Source: Promethearchaeota archaeon
Lineage (GTDB): Archaea > Asgardarchaeota > Lokiarchaeia > Sigyniarchaeales > SOKP01
Reading direction: 5' to 3'
NCBI GenBank assembly: GCA_030599585.1
Contig: JAUVNS010000005.1
Location: 96,001-160,000 of the forward strand
DNA: 64,000 bases
A program made the position numbers and the translations under genes. The notes beneath the pieces are model-generated. The model made no database searches. It was not told where the DNA came from and saw only the letters and a program-made list of their open reading frames with translations. Every line of letters starts with the position of its first letter. Within the stretch, counting starts at the first letter, position 1. Positions 42,986 to 52,402 of this stretch are shown in pieces.

Positions 42986-45532
42986 TTAATTTTGGAACTC
43001 AATATCTCGATGCTGCATCTCTATTAACCGCGTGTATTTCCCGTTTAATGCTAGTAATGATTCATGTGTTCCTTGTTCTATTATACCCTTTTTATCTGTG
43101 CTTAACACAATAATATTATCTGCATTTTTAATCGTTGATAATCTATGGGCGATAATAATTGTGGTTCTTCCTTTTCTGGCTTTATCTAAAGCGTCCTGGA
43201 TAAGCGTCTCGGTGTAAGGGTCTACTGATGATGTTGCCTCATCTAAAATTAAGATTTTCGGATCTGTAATTAACGCACGAGCAAAAGCGATTAATTGACG
43301 TTGTCCAATCGAAATATTTGAAGCATTTTCTTTAAGTTTGGTATTGTATTTCTTGTGCAAAGCTTCAATGAAATTATGCAAACCGAGAAATTTAGAAACG
43401 TCTATCATTTTTCTCTCTTCCTCTGGAGTAGGGTTATCGAATGCATATAATAAATTTTCTCGTATAGTTCCTGTAAAAAGATAAGCATCTTGGGGTACTA
43501 AACCTATCATGTTTCTAAGATCTTTCTTTGTGATATCACGAATATCAATCCCATCTATCAATACTTCTCCATCGTTTACATCGTAAAACCGGGAAATCAA
43601 TTTAGTTATCGTTGTCTTACCAGATCCCGTTTCTCCAACAATAGCCATGGTTTTTCCTGAAGGTATTGTTAAATCTACATTTTTTAGGACGAAACCAGTA
43701 GATTGTTCGTGTCTAATAATGATTTTTTGTTCTTCTATAGCCTCTTTAACTATTTTCGGGATTTGTTCATAAGTTTCTTCGTTGATTTTCATAGATGCTA
43801 ACATTTTTACCATAGATTGAGGCGACATTTGAGGCATACCCCCTCCCATCATTCCTGATTCTCCACCCATTCCACTAGAAGCTGGTGTTACACTTTTACT
43901 TTTCAAACTTTTTTCTAGAAATTTGCTCATTTTTAATATTGATTCAGGGGGTATTGTTGGCATAGAGGGCAATTTTTCTTGATCTTCATGTGCATCCGGT
44001 AGCGTATCGAAAGAAATTTTTAGTTTTGGATTATTTTTTGCAAATTCTGTACCTGGAACAGCATATCCAAATTCTGCAAGGATATTATCTATTAATGAAG
44101 GTGTTTTAGAGGGATCTTGACCCATAAGGCTCATAAATAACTTCTGTCTTATGTTCTGAGGCATGTTCATGGTATTTTTCATCAAGAAAGAAGAATATGG
44201 CTCTGGTAACGACTTCATAAAATCCATAGCTCTTTTTCTCATTTGCTCCATCATTGGATTATCTGAGTGCGCAACACCTGGTGTTTTGGGTGGTGTCATA
44301 GTCTTTGGACTAGTTTGAATTGGATCGGACTCACGATTAGTAATTTCTCCATTTTCCAATATATAACCAAAATTTACGGAATTAAACTTAATTTCTCCAA
44401 TTACATTTTCAATTTGTTTTGGACTCTCATTATCAGGTATTTCAACTCTCTCTTCTAATAAGGTATATATTCTATCACTCGCAGCTAAAGATGCAGTGAT
44501 TATTTCTTGAATCTGCATTAATGTCATGAATGGTCTAAAAAATTGACCCAGAATCGATATGTATGCGCTAAGCACTCCAACTGTAACCGTAATACCAAAT
44601 ATCGAGACATTTCCTAAGACTGCAAACCCTCCTGCTAATAAAATTCCTGCCGTAAGTATGGTTGTTACTAATGAAATTAATGGAAAGATCGTTGCCATAA
44701 ACTTTCTTATTTTTAACATTGCATTATAATTAGCCGTATTAGCTTCATCAAACTCTGAGGATGCTTTTTTTTCCTGTCCGTAGGCTTGAACTACTTTAGC
44801 TCCCGCAATATTTTCTTGAATTGAAGATGTAATGGTCCCAATTGTTTTTCTAGATTCCTTAAAAAGTCCCATTGCTCTCTTTCTAAATATATATATAAAA
44901 ATAAAAAATATCGGGAAAATAATTAAAGAAAGTAAAGCTAGGAACACATTGAGAAAGAACATTATGGTTACTGTAAGGGCTAAACTAACAATACTTGAAA
45001 TTATCGAAACGAATTGACCCCCAACCAATTGATTTAGCTGAGACACATCATTAGTTGTTATAGACATTATATCTCCCGAGGATCTCTTATCAAAATAACT
45101 TAATGACATATCTTGAAGCTTATAGAAAAGGTTATTTCGAATCTCGAATGTAATATTTTGTGATATTTTTCCCATTCCGTACTGTGCAAAATACGTCGTT
45201 ATAGCCATAGCTACAAGAAGCGAAAAGTAAAATGTAGTCATAACTATGATATAAACACTATCTTTGGCCACAATACCGTAGTCTATTAAATTTGCTGAAA
45301 TGATGGGAGTTATTGAAGTTATTAAAGTTCCAAGTAACAACAAAATTAAAAAGGTTACAAATTTCCATTTGTATCCTCTTAAATATGAAAACAACCATTT
45401 CCACAATTCTCGATTAGAGTGTTCTAATTTAGATTTACCACTATCCATCATAAAGCCACGATGCATACCAACCCCTGGTTGAATAATTTTCTTTTCTTCT
45501 TCTTCTTTTTTCTTCTGATTATTGTTACTCAT
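42986..45532 (-). CDS. ABC exporter, fused TMD+NBD subunit with a large NBD insertion
   Basis: GETGSGKT, SIGQRQ, LDEATSSVD, AHR; ATG 45532 has GGAGGA SD and overlaps the upstream stop (track start 45598). Confidence 0.9.
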   Translation of the reverse strand: MSNNNQKKKEEEEKKIIQPGVGMHRGFMMDSGKSKLEHSNRELWKWLFSYLRGYKWKFVTFLILLLLGTLITSITPIISANLIDYGIVAKDSVYIIVMTTFYFSLLVAMAITTYFAQYGMGKISQNITFEIRNNLFYKLQDMSLSYFDKRSSGDIMSITTNDVSQLNQLVGGQFVSIISSIVSLALTVTIMFFLNVFLALLSLIIFPIFFIFIYIFRKRAMGLFKESRKTIGTITSSIQENIAGAKVVQAYGQEKKASSEFDEANTANYNAMLKIRKFMATIFPLISLVTTILTAGILLAGGFAVLGNVSIFGITVTVGVLSAYISILGQFFRPFMTLMQIQEIITASLAASDRIYTLLEERVEIPDNESPKQIENVIGEIKFNSVNFGYILENGEITNRESDPIQTSPKTMTPPKTPGVAHSDNPMMEQMRKRAMDFMKSLPEPYSSFLMKNTMNMPQNIRQKLFMSLMGQDPSKTPSLIDNILAEFGYAVPGTEFAKNNPKLKISFDTLPDAHEDQEKLPSMPTIPPESILKMSKFLEKSLKSKSVTPASSGMGGESGMMGGGMPQMSPQSMVKMLASMKINEETYEQIPKIVKEAIEEQKIIIRHEQSTGFVLKNVDLTIPSGKTMAIVGETGSGKTTITKLISRFYDVNDGEVLIDGIDIRDITKKDLRNMIGLVPQDAYLFTGTIRENLLYAFDNPTPEEERKMIDVSKFLGLHNFIEALHKKYNTKLKENASNISIGQRQLIAFARALITDPKILILDEATSSVDPYTETLIQDALDKARKGRTTIIIAHRLSTIKNADNIIVLSTDKKGIIEQGTHESLLALNGKYTRLIEMQHRDIEFQN

Positions 45533-47267
45533 TAATGTTTCCTCCTTTCGATTTTTGTTTTTGAAACAGAGTTTCATATATTTGCTTATATAATACATTT
45601 GATTTAATTAATTCTTCGTGATTACCGAATCCTACCACGCGACCTCGATCTAGAATTAATATCAAATCCGCATTTCGAATGGTAGATATACGCTGTGTTA
45701 TTATAATGGTTGTCGTATCTTTCATTATTTTTGTAAGGGCTTCTTGAATTTTAAATTCAGTTTCAACATCAACAGAACTTGTAGAATCATCAAAAACCAA
45801 AATCTTAGGTTTTACAATTAAGGCTCTAGCAATGGATAACCGTTGCTTTTGGCCTCCTGATAGCCGTGTCCCTCTTTCTCCTACAATTGAATCGTACCCT
45901 TTCGGTAAAGTTATGATAAACTCATGGAGTTCGGCAATTTGTGCTGCTTCAACAATTTCCTCCTCCTTAGCATCCTCCTTACCATAGGCTATATTTTCTG
46001 CTATGCTCTTATTAAAAAGATAAGTTTCTTGGGAAACTATCCCAATATTTCTTCTTAAATCTTTCAATCTATAATTTTGGATATTTATTCCATCAATTTT
46101 GATACTACCATCATTAACTTCGTAAAATCGTGGAATTAAATTTATTACTGTTGACTTACCAGAGCCAGTCGTCCCTAAAATTGCTAATTTCTTTCCCTCG
46201 GGTATTTTAAATGTAACATCCTTCAAAATTCTATGCTCAGACGTATAACCAAACGATACATTTTCAAAAACTATTTCACCTTTTACATTTTCCAGGGGGA
46301 GAGCGTCTGGAAGATCTTCAATTTCAGGAGCAGAATCAAGAATTTCTCTAACACGCGTTAAAGCAGCATCCGCTTGAACATAAAGCAGCATAATTTGTCC
46401 TAACATCATTAAAGGGAAACCTAGAACGGCTATATAGGAAATTAAAGTGATTATTGCTTCCAATGTTATTTTTCCCTCAATATACCACATTCCTCCTAAG
46501 AAAAATGTGATAATTATCATAAATCCGATAACAATATATACAAGTGGCATGTAAAGCGAGTTGTATTTTACTGAGTCAACACTCGCTTTGTAGAATCTTC
46601 GATTGTTTAGTTGGAATTTCTTGTGTTCTTTATCTTGAGTGCTAAACATTCTAACAACTTCAGCTCCTACGATATTCTCCCTAATCGTATTAGTTAACTC
46701 GCCAAAACTTTCCCGCGTTTCTATAAAAATCGGTTTTAATTTTTTAGCTATAAAGTAGGATATAGTTAAGGATACAACAAAAGCTGTTATCAAAATAAAT
46801 GAAAGTTCTAAGCTAAAAAGTAAAAAACCAACAAAAACACCTGTCATTTGAAGAATCGATTGTAATCCTAAAGTTAAACCCATCCCAAAAATCATTTGAG
46901 TTTCTTCGATGTCACTTGTAGCTCTTGATATCAACTGACCAGTTTCAGTCTTATCAAAAAATGAAAATGATTGTCGGTATATAGCATTACTAATATCTGC
47001 TCGTAAGTAATATATGGCTCTAGAAGATACTTCTGCTCCTTTAAGTCTAGCGGCTCGACTGGTAAAGTATATCAATACTGCGAACAATACAATCAGTAAA
47101 AAATTTATTAATAAATCTGGAGCATTTGTTAATGCTCCAATCATTCTCCCTATAAATATGGGAGTGAATGTGTAAAAAATCGTTGATATTAAGAGAAGTG
47201 TAAACTGATAAATGAAGTTTTTTCTCGATTTTGCCCAATATTTGAATATCATGCGAAGTGAATTCAT
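45525..47267 (-). CDS. ABC exporter, fused TMD+NBD subunit (degenerate-site partner of a heterodimer)
   Basis: GTTGSGKS, LSGGQ, FDDSTSSVD (catalytic E to D), TQR (switch H to Q). Confidence 0.92.
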   Translation of the reverse strand: MNSLRMIFKYWAKSRKNFIYQFTLLLISTIFYTFTPIFIGRMIGALTNAPDLLINFLLIVLFAVLIYFTSRAARLKGAEVSSRAIYYLRADISNAIYRQSFSFFDKTETGQLISRATSDIEETQMIFGMGLTLGLQSILQMTGVFVGFLLFSLELSFILITAFVVSLTISYFIAKKLKPIFIETRESFGELTNTIRENIVGAEVVRMFSTQDKEHKKFQLNNRRFYKASVDSVKYNSLYMPLVYIVIGFMIIITFFLGGMWYIEGKITLEAIITLISYIAVLGFPLMMLGQIMLLYVQADAALTRVREILDSAPEIEDLPDALPLENVKGEIVFENVSFGYTSEHRILKDVTFKIPEGKKLAILGTTGSGKSTVINLIPRFYEVNDGSIKIDGINIQNYRLKDLRRNIGIVSQETYLFNKSIAENIAYGKEDAKEEEIVEAAQIAELHEFIITLPKGYDSIVGERGTRLSGGQKQRLSIARALIVKPKILVFDDSTSSVDVETEFKIQEALTKIMKDTTTIIITQRISTIRNADLILILDRGRVVGFGNHEELIKSNVLYKQIYETLFQKQKSKGGNINE

Positions 47268-47274
47268 AATTTTC

Positions 47275-47814
47275 TCATTCTTCCTTTTTCAAGTTAGTAA
47301 TTTTTTGAATTTTTTGTTTCTCTTTTCTAATTTTTCTCAATATTTCATTTACATCATCTTCCATATATGTCAATGCATTCAATTTTTCTTCAATAGAAAC
47401 GTCCTTCTGCATTATATATTCAACTGGACTAGACCACACGCAAAAGGTTGCTCCTTTTAGAAACGTCTCATGATCAAATTCTAAACCACTTTCTGGAAAT
47501 CGATGTTTGATAAACTCAAATAATTTTCCGATTTTTTGACGAAGATCTGATGATTTTCTTATGCCTTTTTCGGTTAGAAAATATAGGTGTTTAGGTCGAC
47601 CGGTATCCTTACTTACATCGTCTTTTATTGATAAATAGCCTTCTTCTGCTAATTCTTTCATCATCCGATAAATCTTTGAGTGTGGTATATTTCCAAACTT
47701 CTTCAAATCGTAGTAAGTTAATCCTTCTGGAAAATCTTTGACTGTGTTGAATATAAATATGGTTTTTAAATCCTCTGAGAATTCTATGAAGAATTTAAAC
47801 CCTTTAGGCCACAT
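47275..47814 (-). CDS. PadR-like winged-helix transcriptional regulator
   Basis: YDLKK..IYRMMKELAEEGYL..GRPKHLYFLTEKG; start taken at MWPKG (track start 47883). Confidence 0.8.
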   Translation of the reverse strand: MWPKGFKFFIEFSEDLKTIFIFNTVKDFPEGLTYYDLKKFGNIPHSKIYRMMKELAEEGYLSIKDDVSKDTGRPKHLYFLTEKGIRKSSDLRQKIGKLFEFIKHRFPESGLEFDHETFLKGATFCVWSSPVEYIMQKDVSIEEKLNALTYMEDDVNEILRKIRKEKQKIQKITNLKKEE

Positions 47815-47840
47815 TTTTGTATAAAAGATATAAATAAGAA

Positions 47841-47915
47841 AATTTTTTTCAAAATGAAATATTATGAAAGGCGAAATATTCATTAATTTATAATTTTTTT
47901 CATTTTGAAATATTA
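47841..47915. promoter_or_regulatory. Duplicated palindromic operator candidate TTTCA-N3-TGAAA
   Basis: 24-nt direct repeats at 47841-47864 and 47892-47915, differing only in the 3 central bases, between divergent genes. Confidence 0.55.
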
Positions 47916-49466: not shown

Positions 49467-50216
49467 ATGGATTTTGAATCAAAATATTTTGAAATAAGAC
49501 AATTCTTATCGATTTCTGAGCTAGATTTTAACTTGGATAAGAAGATTGATGAAATTTTTGATTCAGATAGTCTTAAGATGGAAATATTAAGTAATATTAC
49601 CCAATTTATCTATTATTTTTCACTTTTTAAGAATGTAAAACCTTTTATGAATTCCGTTTACTACTGCATTGAAACTACTTTAGAAATTCGGGTTGAATCT
49701 GTAAGCGATTTTAAAGAGCTACTAGTAAAAAATGCATTGATGAGATTTGTTCAAGAATATATAGATTACTCACAATTAACACAAAAAAGACAAGTAATGA
49801 AGTTTTTATCCGATTCATTTGAGAAACTTCAAATTCAGCCTATTATTATTAATTTAGGGTTACTTCTTAAACCTATGTATCAGGATAAGGCTTATCTTGA
49901 TAGAGCACTCAAGACTAAGGAAGAAAAAATCAATTATTCCCTTCTTACTGAAAATGAAAATGAAATTGAAATTAAGACCATAATTGACGAATGGTTAAAG
50001 GTTCAAGTTATTACATTAAACAATCAAGACGAGATTAAAACAGAATTAGGAAAAAAATATGAAGATTTAATGATTAATTTTAAAATTATTAAAAGCTCTG
50101 AGATTTACAAAAAACTTTTCAAGGAAATAATGGAAATGCTCTCATTGAGACTTACTCTTATTAGTTTAACGGAATCAATATCAGACGATTCATTTGAACC
50201 TATTCCAATTAAATAA
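49467..50216 (+). CDS. Hypothetical helical protein
   Basis: 249-aa ORF with no recognised motif. Confidence 0.65.
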   Translation: MDFESKYFEIRQFLSISELDFNLDKKIDEIFDSDSLKMEILSNITQFIYYFSLFKNVKPFMNSVYYCIETTLEIRVESVSDFKELLVKNALMRFVQEYIDYSQLTQKRQVMKFLSDSFEKLQIQPIIINLGLLLKPMYQDKAYLDRALKTKEEKINYSLLTENENEIEIKTIIDEWLKVQVITLNNQDEIKTELGKKYEDLMINFKIIKSSEIYKKLFKEIMEMLSLRLTLISLTESISDDSFEPIPIK

Positions 50217-50385
50217 ATGCCTTACTCGAAGTTCTGATTCTTGTTCTATTCCAAAATTCCATATTTTTAAAAATTCGAATAATTTGAACATTTAGGATAT
50301 TGAAATCTATTAAATCTTGGATAAGTAAATTATTAAATACAAATTTTGATATTATATTTAAAAAAAACAATAATTTACTCCTAGC

Positions 50386-51867
50386 GTGAGAAAATTGGAA
50401 GAAAACGATAAACCTTTATCCACCGAAGAAATAGAGAAGCAAAAAAAGATAGTTGATGACCTATATAGAAAAGAAAAAGAAGATAGAGAAAGTTACTTCA
50501 AGAGCTTTGAGGAAGAACGAAAAACTGCTTTTGAAGAGAGTAAAGATCTTATATCCTCATTAATCTCAAAGAAGAGCTTCATGAGAGAAAAACAAAGAGA
50601 AAAAGATATAATAAGAATGGAGATTAAACCTGAAATCGAAAAAACTGGCGAAGCGATTGAAAAATCCATAAGTGAAAAAGCTTTTATGAGAGAGAAACAC
50701 AGAGAAGAAGATCATATAAGGATCGATCTAAAACCTGATATTAGAGGGGTAGGTGAAGCAATAAGTAAAACTGTTGACGACAAGGCTTTCTTAATTGAAA
50801 AAAGGAGAGAATCTGATGAACACAGAATGAAGATCAAACCTAACTTCGAGCAAACAGGAGAGGTAATAAGTAAAAATATTGATGAAAAAGCTTTTTTAAT
50901 AGAAAAAAAGAAAGAGAGCGATTCGGTATTGCTAGATTTAAAACCAGACATGCAAACTGCTAGCAACGCAATTAGTAAATCAATAGGAGAGAAGGCTTTT
51001 TTAAGAGAAAAACAAAGAGAAAGCGATCTGAGTAGAATGCATATCAAACCAGACTTTATGAAAACGGGTGAAGCGATAAGTAAAACAATAGCCGAAAAAG
51101 CTTTTAGAATTGAGAAAAAAAAAGAGACCCAGCACAAAAAAATGGAACTACATCCAGATATTGAAGGTAAAGGAGAGGCAATAAAGGAATCTATTAACGA
51201 AAAAGCATTTAGGATTGATATGCAAAAGGATAGAGAAAGAAAAATAAAAGAGTTAAATCCAGATATTAGCAAAGCTGGAGAATCCATTGCCCAATCTATT
51301 GGAACAAAGGCCTTTTTACGCGAAACGCGCAGAGAAAAGGATCATGAGAGAATAGATTTGAAACCAGATTTTATGAAAACTGGAGACGCAATTAGCGCTA
51401 CAGTAGCTGAAAAAGCCTTTAGAATGGAAAAAAGTCGCGAAATTGACGAAAAAAAACATGACCTAAAACCTGATATAAAAAAAACTGCAGAATTAATTAG
51501 CAAATCTATACAAGAAAAAGCGTTTTTACGAGAAAAACACAGAGCCGAGGATTCTAAACGTATGGAAATAAAACCAGACATAACAAAAGCAAGTCAAGCC
51601 ATTAAATCTTCAATTGACGAAAAGGCTTTTAGAATTGAGAAGCAAAAAGAGATGGACCATAAAAGAATGGAATTAAAACCGGACTTTGAGAAATCCAGTG
51701 ACGCTATTCAAAAAACAATAGGGGAAAAAGCATTTATTATCGAAAAACAAAAAACTCGCGATTCTGAACTAATAGAGCTTAAACCAGATATTAAAGGTAT
51801 CAGTTCTTTAATCGAAGGAAAAATTGAAAAAATTGAACAGAAGAAAAAGGACGAGAATACTACATAA
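50386..51867 (+). CDS. Uncharacterised tandem-repeat protein (35-aa units)
   Basis: 11 clear units plus 1 degenerate and 1 partial of KPD....GEAISKSI.EKAF..EK.RE.D..RM.L. Confidence 0.85.
   Translation: MRKLEENDKPLSTEEIEKQKKIVDDLYRKEKEDRESYFKSFEEERKTAFEESKDLISSLISKKSFMREKQREKDIIRMEIKPEIEKTGEAIEKSISEKAFMREKHREEDHIRIDLKPDIRGVGEAISKTVDDKAFLIEKRRESDEHRMKIKPNFEQTGEVISKNIDEKAFLIEKKKESDSVLLDLKPDMQTASNAISKSIGEKAFLREKQRESDLSRMHIKPDFMKTGEAISKTIAEKAFRIEKKKETQHKKMELHPDIEGKGEAIKESINEKAFRIDMQKDRERKIKELNPDISKAGESIAQSIGTKAFLRETRREKDHERIDLKPDFMKTGDAISATVAEKAFRMEKSREIDEKKHDLKPDIKKTAELISKSIQEKAFLREKHRAEDSKRMEIKPDITKASQAIKSSIDEKAFRIEKQKEMDHKRMELKPDFEKSSDAIQKTIGEKAFIIEKQKTRDSELIELKPDIKGISSLIEGKIEKIEQKKKDENTT
50626..51780 (+). 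repeat. 11 x 105-bp degenerate coding tandem repeat
   Basis: Exact 105-nt period with no indels; units diverged at the DNA level. Confidence 0.9.
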
Positions 51868-51898: not shown

Positions 51899-52402
51899 CT
51901 ATAAATGGACATCAAATTTGAATAAAGTATTTAAATTCATATTTTCTAATCTTTTTTTATATTGTAGAATTGAAGGATCTACATTTCCATTAAAATTCCT
52001 TATTGCAGACTCGAATCTATAGTAAAAATCTTCCATAATTTGATGTAAAATTACTCTCTCTACTTGTAAATTGGTTTTCTTCGAAATCGCAATCACTGAC
52101 AATCGCCCTCTCCTTTCGTATAAAATTCTACTCTCCTTAAAATTCACTTCTTGAATCTCGTCGTTCACTGATTCAGGTTTAATCTCGCTAATAAAAAGAT
52201 TAAGCGCATTAAGAAAACCACTTATCAAATCTTCATGAGACGAAAATCTAGAGTTGTGCGTATATTTTTTGCTAAGCAGTAAAGAACCCGATACATTGTC
52301 TAAGAAGTAAATTGCGTGAAAACGATTAACATCTAAATTAATCTTTTCTAAATTAAATCCATACGACTTCTCTATATTTTTATTAATCCATCTATTCGAC
52401 AT
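51899..52402 (-). CDS. Longin-like domain protein
   Basis: IYFLD..SG.LL..KKY..DLISGFLNALNLFISEI..IQEVNF..RILY. Confidence 0.6.
   Translation of the reverse strand: MSNRWINKNIEKSYGFNLEKINLDVNRFHAIYFLDNVSGSLLLSKKYTHNSRFSSHEDLISGFLNALNLFISEIKPESVNDEIQEVNFKESRILYERRGRLSVIAISKKTNLQVERVILHQIMEDFYYRFESAIRNFNGNVDPSILQYKKRLENMNLNTLFKFDVHL

Follow-up and report, generated by a model that had tools for sequence, protein, structure and literature searches.

What kind of protein is built from exact 35-residue repeats in a Lokiarchaeal genome, and what might such a chain bind? The question is raised by a gene at positions 50,386–51,867 of the forward strand of the window (the whole 64,000-nt stretch of contig JAUVNS010000005.1 that was analysed), which consists of 493 codons followed by a stop codon at 51,865–51,867 and encodes a 57.7-kDa protein with a pI of 8.9. 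In a first-pass annotation the period had been likened to that of nebulin, and the protein was taken for a candidate ruler, an extended helical binder of a periodic polymer such as Lokiactin. The very high charge noted at that time is borne out by the composition, with 46% of the residues charged (K + R 118, D + E 111) and a GRAVY of −1.12. The protein carries no signal peptide, transmembrane segment or lipobox cysteine, and it contains no hydrophobic segment, the maximum Kyte–Doolittle value over a 19-residue window being 0.41.

When the protein is compared with itself, a shift of 35 residues gives an identity of 0.417, against a mean of 0.081 for all shifts other than multiples of 35; in shuffled sequences the maximum over all shifts averages 0.129, which gives z = 42 for the 35-residue period. 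Set out in a 35-residue register, the sequence agrees with the reading of 11 indel-free units at aa 81–465 between a degenerate first and a partial last unit, all on the forward strand. The 35-residue register is kept by unit 1 (aa 81–115, 50,626–50,730), unit 2 (aa 116–150, 50,731–50,835), unit 3 (aa 151–185, 50,836–50,940), unit 4 (aa 186–220, 50,941–51,045) and unit 5 (aa 221–255, 51,046–51,150). Unit 6 (aa 256–290, 51,151–51,255) is the most divergent one and begins with HPD, unit 7 (aa 291–325, 51,256–51,360) is modelled by AF2 as a helix over its residues 4–34, and unit 8 (aa 326–360, 51,361–51,465) forms the closest pair with unit 5 (68% identity). The register continues through units 9 (aa 361–395, 51,466–51,570), 10 (aa 396–430, 51,571–51,675) and 11 (aa 431–465, 51,676–51,780), which are included in the five-unit AF2 model described below. 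The degenerate unit 0 (aa 46–80, 50,521–50,625) has KSF instead of KAF, is devoid of the proline and shares 20–45% identity with the other units. At the other end, aa 466–493 (51,781–51,864) comprise the partial unit and a K/E-rich C-terminal tail that is conserved in the alignment (KPDIKG...IEKIE.KKK). The whole array is preceded by a conserved N-terminal region at aa 1–45 (50,386–50,520; EEIE...Y..K..E..RK) recognised by its invariant alignment columns, and this region is predicted to lie within one long helix of aa 13–114, with a pLDDT of 78–89 over aa 11–70 in the AF2 model.

The consensus proposed initially, with its invariant proline and KAF, was recovered, and I11 turned out to be invariant as well, the residues common to all of units 1–11 being P2, I11, K18, A19 and F20. 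The strong divergence at a conserved length was also confirmed, as the units are 31–68% identical in protein and 50–73% in DNA with no indel. Tandem Repeats Finder reported no 105-nt array in the DNA; together with the low identity of the units, this marks the array as old and diverged, with its unit length preserved. The logo derived from 446 distinct units exceeds 2.6 bits at 16 of the 35 positions. The strongly conserved positions are I11, I15, E17-K18-A19-F20, E23-K24, R26-E27, D29, R32 and L35; G, S, A or D prevail at position 16, and a proline stands at the unit boundary in 351 of the 446 units.

The gene is real: its orthologues are widespread in the family, the start and the neighbourhood are kept, and dN/dS is about 0.15. 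The latter value holds with little variation (about 0.14–0.15) across the N-terminus, the repeats and the tail, and it indicates purifying selection; in three of four close comparisons the C-terminal tail has the lowest dN/dS (0.03–0.07), the fourth giving 0.14. The GTG at 50,386 is kept in the 26 inspected orthologues of family f1. In the start region (50,386–50,397, forward strand) there is a second candidate, the TTG at 50,395, and this codon 4 is a start codon in all of these 26 orthologues (TTG, but ATG in five of them), so the actual start may lie three codons downstream of the GTG. About 20–40 nt upstream of the start, an A/T-rich box, ATATTATATTTAAAAAAAA (50,345–50,369, forward strand), can be read from the sequence; it is possibly an archaeal TATA/BRE element, in which case the leader would be very short. 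RNA libraries of three studies contain contigs that are 90–99% like the gene region, a weak sign that the gene is transcribed. In two vent metatranscriptomes the depth over the repeat gene is greater than over its neighbours, which is not evidence of high expression, since the repeat gene served to choose the runs and genes cannot be ranked by contig depth.

The neighbours in the window that reach the curated Pfam cut-off are limited to DUF362, ABC exporters and a radical-SAM gene, and a PadR-type winged-helix match falls just below its cut-off. Since the entire block is syntenic throughout the source family, adjacency is hardly informative. The upstream 249-aa neighbour gave only scores below 0.8 in the ESM Atlas feature search, and the genes flanking a sister-family relative (glycosyl hydrolase-like, metallo-beta-lactamase, AsnC HTH and Dus) have none in common with the neighbourhood in the window.

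The phyletic distribution, an examination of which had been proposed along with the ruler, was found to be nearly restricted to one family. Orthologues are present in 109 of the 134 genomes of the source GTDB family, the two sister families have the gene in 1 of 14 and 2 of 4 genomes, and none of 118 genomes from 23 other Asgard families has it. Because most Asgard archaea do not possess this protein, the partner that it binds may be lineage-specific, or elsewhere it does without the repeat protein. The number of whole units varies among the orthologues, to fewer or more than 11 (roughly 3 to 13 among the relatives). The idea of a ruler with one fixed geometry was weakened. The 35-residue register is exact in all in-genus orthologues read, where the sole irregular spacing is an assembly gap, and it is also kept in the other sampled genera of the family; on the other hand, some arrays within the family include 32-residue or 30+40 units, and remote relatives have periods of 37 or 32 residues, so the spacing is not universal. 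As it stands, this is an uncharacterised and unnamed gene for a lineage-restricted structural protein of one Loki-type Asgard family.

Comparisons with known families were of limited yield. For the whole protein, a word-indexed homologue search returned no match and missed even the protein itself, and an exhaustive HMMER search returned 50 matches, which were fragments for the most part. The search against NCBIfam produced matches at chance level only, the single-sequence search of the PDB none, and the ESM Atlas feature search with the 493-aa protein no usable one. Neither Nebulin nor Thymosin, WH2, TPR or PPR is listed in Pfam at E ≤ 10 for the window protein, and all five are likewise absent among the 25 families listed at this threshold for 23 orthologues. 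The kinship with nebulin was therefore not sustained: in addition to the missing profile match, the repeat is without SDxxYK, its core being E-K-A-F, and the seven-unit super-repeat is absent, as lag 7 does not stand out (identity at the variable positions 0.24, against 0.22–0.34 at other lags). What is shared with the simple repeats of nebulin, nebulette and LASP (PF00880) is the use of tandem modules of about 35 residues that vary in number as whole modules, a single short, aromatic-containing conserved motif in each module, and a mostly helical, extended chain, whereas the Lokiarchaeal repeat is archaeal and found in one family. As far as the sequences tell, the resemblance to nebulin is one of layout only, and a literature search for a link between nebulin and Asgard archaea found nothing relevant. 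Beta-thymosin and WH2 were also rejected as relatives, as LKKT/LKKV is absent from the units in addition to the lack of a listed family. By description, the protein may be likened to GvpC with its 33-residue repeats, a prokaryotic protein that is likewise a string of constant-length helical repeats. The repeats of GvpC lie on the periodic protein lattice of gas vesicles; a search for GvpA (PF00741) gave no match in the source genome, and the control genomes gave none either.

The predictions of structure for the protein alone, also among the checks proposed at the outset, yielded extended single helices with no packing. The full-length AF2 model has a single helix per unit, interrupted at the KPD sites, and the model of five units with a 122-row alignment (pLDDT 84) places this helix at residues 4–34 of each unit. 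The MAFFT alignment of the five-unit windows in forced register had rows displaced by whole units (350 columns) and was still used. The pTM of the five-unit model, 0.24, implies that no fixed arrangement of the helices is predicted. Mean-field DCA was carried out on 521 pairs of adjacent units (Meff 261); among its top 70 couplings, 56 are at separations of 9 or less (mostly 1, 3, 4 and 7) and seven at exactly 35, and the 521 pairs show no clustered contacts, whether of hairpin type or between units. Taken together, AF2 and DCA point to a single 31-residue helix per unit with no helix packing, which argues against a hairpin of the TPR/PPR type and fits an extended rod; the earlier claim of an extended helical chain with no PPR-type two-helix core thus gained support from both predictions. 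With either AF2 model, Foldseek matched zero folds in the PDB. In the ESM Atlas shape search about 100–115 residues align to long helices of the SMC and kinesin type (TM < 0.5), which suggests that the model is rod-like. AF2 has a tendency to render charged sequences as isolated helices; given the G, S, A or D found at position 16 in most units, a bend there is possible.

The explanation which we tentatively prefer, at somewhat less than even confidence, is a multivalent hydrophilic rod or scaffold that offers one conserved patch per helix to a candidate periodic partner. The protein would be a cytoplasmic and strongly hydrophilic rod made up of a long N-terminal helix and then 11 modules, each of the latter a solvent-exposed alpha-helix of about 31 residues and ~4.6 nm that has a Pro-Asp cap at its start, with a four-residue L-K-P-D break before the next one. 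Although the modules are predicted not to pack against each other, conservation is strong at almost half of their positions, which would point to the same external binding patch in every module. Such a scaffold or side-binder might run along a repetitive cellular structure or bridge it, and unequal recombination would gain or lose whole modules. We infer the binding of the patch to a partner as well as the periodicity and the identity of this partner, and it is only for their compatible spacing that Lokiactin filaments lead the candidates. In the logo of the 446 units, the conserved residues surround the central part of the helix and do not mark a single face, an arrangement that would fit self-association as well.

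Self-association, in which the helices would pair with their counterparts in other chains as a segmented coiled coil or bundle and build a dimeric rod or filament like those of the bacterial coiled-coil-rich proteins, is an unlikely explanation, albeit one with several points in its favour besides the conservation on more than one helix face. Arithmetically, 35 residues are five heptads, so the heptad phase would be preserved between units; I4, I11, I15 and I22 have an a/d-like spacing, the N-terminal helix of ~100 residues is confidently predicted, and the Atlas shape search matched coiled-coil proteins. However, the core would then contain G8, K18, Q25, D29 and R32, the C-terminal half of each helix is without an apolar stripe, proline occupies almost all boundaries, and past helical spacing DCA gave no couplings interpretable as contacts between chains. 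Somewhat less probable still is a hydrophilin- or LEA-like protectant or single-alpha-helix spacer, abundant and with no specific partner. The ER/K single-alpha-helix (SAH) domains and LEA/hydrophilin repeats have the same very high charge and, like the present protein in AF2, no predicted tertiary fold, and the hydrophilic composition, the many pairs of opposite charges at i/i+3 and i/i+4 and an 11-residue hydrophobic stripe (I4-G8-I11, I15-A19-I22, R26-x30-M33), from which 35 = 33+2 and 37 = 33+4 can be derived, are all consistent with this role. SAH domains and LEA/hydrophilin repeats are stable lone helices without strict apolar residues, exact length or Pro-Asp caps, whereas the Lokiarchaeal protein has all three; the invariance of I11, A19 and F20 and the length fixed over 446 units exceed the needs of a bulk role, against which the dN/dS of 0.15 throughout also speaks.

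A far-diverged alpha-solenoid of the TPR/PPR type, with a helix-turn-helix bent near G16-E17 and a superhelix binding protein or RNA, appears very improbable. The period of PPR (35 aa) is the same and that of TPR (34 aa) is near, though TPR itself was rejected on this count, and the inter-repeat motif (hydrophobic-K/x-P-D-hydrophobic) is common to them. The HMM comparison suggested by the first-pass annotation gave a mixed outcome, for outside Pfam, which lists neither family, HMMER matched TPR proteins weakly (20–28% identity, E 1e-13 to 1e-4), with one gap per unit in the alignments (259 query vs 252 target residues), and a profile search matched the designer PPR dPPR10 (6een), in register at 35 residues and again weakly (E = 0.0011). 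Small residues at position 16 would suit a turn, and in the metagenomic protein P0008 two units pass directly into TPRs at the LKPDF motif. Against this, hhalign with a TPR array reached 42% probability with shifting gaps and the I-x-P-D-F motif as its only anchor, the unit is predicted as one continuous helix and not two, unbroken through positions 16–18 with pLDDT above 90 in several units, DCA revealed no contacts between a helix A and a helix B, and the apolar positions are far fewer (about 9 of 35), the C-terminal half of the unit being charged. The least probable explanation is an amphipathic repeat for membrane or lipid surfaces, as in apolipoproteins, perilipins and entericidin, to which the Pro-punctuated helices and the 11-residue rhythm of the apolar stripe would be suited. 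The hydrophobic moment is low (0.15 for the mean unit at 100 degrees, maximum 0.23), which argues against a lipid-surface helix and led us to reject the apolipoprotein-type repeats; the mean hydrophobicity is strongly negative, and the apolar stripe, in which Gly and Lys also occur, has a width of a single residue. Unit residues 3–14 (D-I-x-K-x-G-E-A-I-x-K-S) do align to positions 8–19 of the Entericidin EcnA/B profile (PF08085), where the window protein scores 8.9 bits vs a cut-off of 23.3 and several orthologues pass with up to 46.6 bits. They pass by the summed score only, no stretch of this 12-residue motif doing so singly, and a protein of 493 aa lacking both signal peptide and lipobox does not belong there; on this alignment the match is a chance resemblance of a short motif that the repetition multiplies. 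The weak TPR, designer PPR and Entericidin matches alike probably rest on brief motifs added up across many units.

A rival explanation, which continues the proposal of the first-pass annotation, is a nebulin- or tropomyosin-like side-binder of Lokiactin, with one 35-residue module per actin protomer, which would stabilise the filaments or set their length; we regard it as improbable, on a par with the protectant. The helix of ~4.6 nm and a linker of up to ~1.3 nm per module are arithmetically compatible with the spacing of actin, the strand repeat of which is roughly 5.5 nm. Each module has one strongly conserved motif containing an aromatic residue, and the source genome encodes Lokiactin and three other actin-family proteins. 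On the opposite side, neither a sequence relation to nebulin nor its seven-module super-repeat is present, the actin gene is on a different contig from the repeat gene, and the remote relatives have 37- and 32-residue periods. Lokiactin is 88–100% identical across the order, with 96–100% within the family and 88–92% in the sister family, while the repeat protein is almost confined to a single family. The main regulators of Asgard actin named in the literature are profilins and gelsolins only (PMC13716822), so that a side-binder would fill a gap. It would have to be an independent invention of one family, in which one 35-residue helix per protomer lies along Lokiactin and the number of modules tunes the length or stiffness of the actin-based protrusions, a scenario to which we likewise assign a low probability.

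If the protein were indeed a filament side-binder or ruler, it would represent a third, independently evolved class of Asgard actin regulator and would have a bearing on the way in which these relatives of the eukaryotes build their complex cell shapes. Even with no actin partner, the protein is a clean natural tandem array of single helices whose length is exact over hundreds of diverged copies, and the repeat family offers a tractable system for studying what constrains the length of a repeat.

The gene at 50386–51867 of the window (+ strand) encodes a protein of 493 residues, the central part of which (residues 81–465) consists of 11 units that keep a 35-residue register with zero indels. 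In the register printout, a degenerate unit stands ahead of this array (residues 46–80) and a partial unit with a K/E-rich tail behind it (residues 466–493). Positions P2, I11, K18, A19 and F20 are invariant across the 11 units. The self-identity of the protein is 0.417 at a shift of 35 and averages 0.081 at shifts other than multiples of 35; in shuffled sequences the best-shift identity averages 0.129, which places the observed value at z = 42. Since the units are only 31–68% identical to each other as protein and 50–73% as DNA, and no 105-nt array is reported by TRF, the array is an old one that has diverged in sequence while its length was kept. The first-pass annotation, which had described exact units in this arrangement, a consensus that matches ours and an old array of constrained length, is borne out in these respects.

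The reading frame is a real gene. Its pairwise dN/dS against close orthologues is 0.14–0.15, being alike for the N-terminus and the repeats and lower in the tail in three of four comparisons. The GTG start is kept in 26 orthologues of the host's GTDB family, but translation may begin at 50395 instead of 50386, because codon 4 is also a start codon in all of them (TTG, or ATG in five). RNA libraries from three studies contain short contigs 90–99% alike to the gene, which provides weak evidence that it is transcribed.

The gene, single-copy in its own genome, is present in 33 of 36 other genomes searched within the genus, at 52–92% identity, and a profile built from 23 orthologues detected it in 109 of the 134 genomes of the family (11 of 13 genera). 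Outside the family it is nearly absent: 1/14 and 2/4 genomes of two sister families were positive, the four single-contig sister-family genomes searched gave no match, and none of 118 genomes across 23 other families of the phylum carries it. The repeats seem to break short-read assemblies; a run of N, marking an assembly gap, lies inside the array of one orthologue (locus L026, G025:C91), and several others are divided across contig ends.

The surrounding gene order is maintained within the genus and in other genera: DUF362, an optional 249-aa gene, the repeat gene, a convergent 167-aa gene, a 158-aa gene and, beyond it, genes for a small zinc-finger protein, a membrane protein and a radical-SAM protein. 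The 167-aa gene (51899–52402, − strand) adjoins the repeat gene throughout the family and matches nothing in Pfam, even at E ≤ 10. The 249-aa gene (49467–50216, +), immediately upstream of the repeat gene and co-oriented with it, is kept in most of the family and absent from at least six in-genus loci that retain the repeat gene (L007, L010 and L014–L017); family searches found none for it. Elsewhere in the window, two adjacent ABC exporter genes of 870 and 580 aa (42986–47267, −), the first about 290 residues longer than the second, are followed by a winged-helix regulator gene (47275–47883, −).

The AF2 model of the full-length protein (23-row alignment; pLDDT 63, pTM 0.18) has residues 13–114 as one helix and then a single helix per unit, with four-residue breaks at L-K-P-D. 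A model of five units, for which the alignment had 122 rows of unit windows, is helical at residues 4–34 of every unit; its pLDDT of 84 and pTM of 0.24 mean that the local structure is confident and that no inter-helix arrangement is predicted. Independently, mean-field DCA of 521 distinct adjacent-unit pairs from 75 proteins (Meff 261) placed 56 of the strongest 70 couplings at separations up to 9, chiefly 1, 3, 4 and 7, the signature of a helix. Seven more fall at exactly 35 (the same position in neighbouring units) and reflect changes shared by whole lineages, KAF to KSF among them; the last seven are scattered, and no cluster of helix A–helix B or unit-to-unit contacts is seen among the 70. 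Model and couplings thus both favour one predicted helix per unit over a hairpin solenoid, in line with the earlier remark that an obvious PPR-type two-helix core is lacking. Foldseek matched neither model to the PDB; the Atlas shape search found SMC- or kinesin-type models whose long helices align over 100–115 residues, which suggests that the predicted shape is roughly a rod.

A diverged TPR/PPR solenoid is accordingly very unlikely, even though the sequence is not without resemblance to such proteins. The exhaustive search gave weak matches to TPR proteins (20–28% identity), and the PDB profile search matched the designer PPR dPPR10 in register at 35 residues (E = 0.0011). Both matches hinge on (I/L)-K-P-D-(I/F), the motif at the unit boundary and a common helix stop–start signal. 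The hhalign comparison with a TPR array reached 42% probability with inconsistent gaps, and no TPR or PPR model is listed by Pfam. Membership was rejected in view of the single helix predicted per unit. In the 199-aa metagenomic protein P0008, the N-terminal region and two units pass directly into TPR repeats at LKPDF, a join produced either by natural fusion or by a chimera in the assembly. Entericidin (PF08085) is listed for 17 of the 23 orthologues, with summed scores above the gathering cut-off in several (L022, L021, L013, L024 and L011; up to 46.6 bits) and 8.9 bits for the window protein. The match spans just 12 residues per unit and no single stretch passes alone, so we reject it as a repeated short-motif coincidence; automatic annotation could nevertheless mislabel orthologues in this way. 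Thymosin and WH2 matches are not listed.

The likeness to nebulin seen in the first-pass annotation holds for module length and extended layout and no further. The core motif is another, a seven-module super-repeat is lacking, and at E ≤ 10 the Nebulin profile is listed neither for the window protein nor among the families shown for the 23 orthologues; a nebulin repeat was therefore rejected. As for the proposed ruler function, the spacing of the KAF cores is 35 almost everywhere in the family, the exceptions being a few units of 32 residues and pairs of 30+40; one apparent irregularity is an assembly gap. Orthologues vary by whole units, in-genus proteins having 385–495 aa and those of other genera about 3 to 12 cores (some of these frames are cut by contig ends). 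Short forms combine the N-terminal region with one to four units, some with a K-W-L-x-Q-L-K-x-x-R-K tail; the short relatives L051, P0006 and P0002 have 3–7 units and end in a conserved K-W-L-(D/E)-Q-L-K-x-x-R-K tail, which the window protein lacks, P0002 with an additional Pro-rich C-terminal extension. Against the ruler, a sister-family genome and two metagenomic proteins have a 37-residue period without Pro, and another metagenomic protein a period of 32. The best of four actin-family genes in the host genome (contigs C4, C20, C35 and C8), of 381 aa (L061:1498–2640, −), is 96–100% identical to its orthologues across the whole family; Lokiactin is still 88–92% identical in the sister family, and several relatives have an additional actin paralogue at 81–85%. 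Several periods and a narrow distribution are not what a fixed actin spacing predicts. They weaken the ruler reading and do no more, since nebulin modules too vary in length. The Lokiactin gene also sits on a different contig. We regard the side-binder of Lokiactin proposed in the first-pass annotation as improbable.

The logo of 446 distinct units of the family is strongest at K1-P2-D3, I11, I15, E17-K18-A19-F20, E23-K24, R26-E27, D29, R32 and L35. One side of the helix carries a thin apolar stripe (I4, G8, I11, I15, A19, I22, then R26, D29, M33), and the opposite side would, from helical geometry, hold F20, K24, E27 and L35. Such heavy conservation on a lone helix, in units that apparently do not pack together, implies that the helix makes contact outside its own chain, with a partner or with further copies of the protein. 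The latter would make the protein a self-associating rod or filament, which we consider unlikely. A hydrophilin- or SAH-like protein with no specific partner, for which one might cite the 46% charged residues, pI of 8.9 and GRAVY of −1.12, has in our estimate a small chance of being correct. The mean unit is weakly amphipathic (hydrophobic moment 0.15 at 100 degrees, maximum 0.23) and the protein has no hydrophobic segment; a lipid-surface binder is the least probable reading of all. Our preferred, still tentative, reading is that the protein would form an extended chain of single helices, each module offering one conserved patch to a putative repetitive partner, so that the chain could serve as a multivalent scaffold. 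GvpC-type lattice binders offer an analogy; the gvpA search gave no match in the host genome, but no signal in the control genomes either, and is thus uninformative.

The observation behind the first-pass annotation is thus confirmed and its interpretation partly supported. The repeat protein represents a new family, restricted to its lineage, of a generally known kind, the tandem single-helix scaffold, and only proven binding to actin would make it one of high interest.
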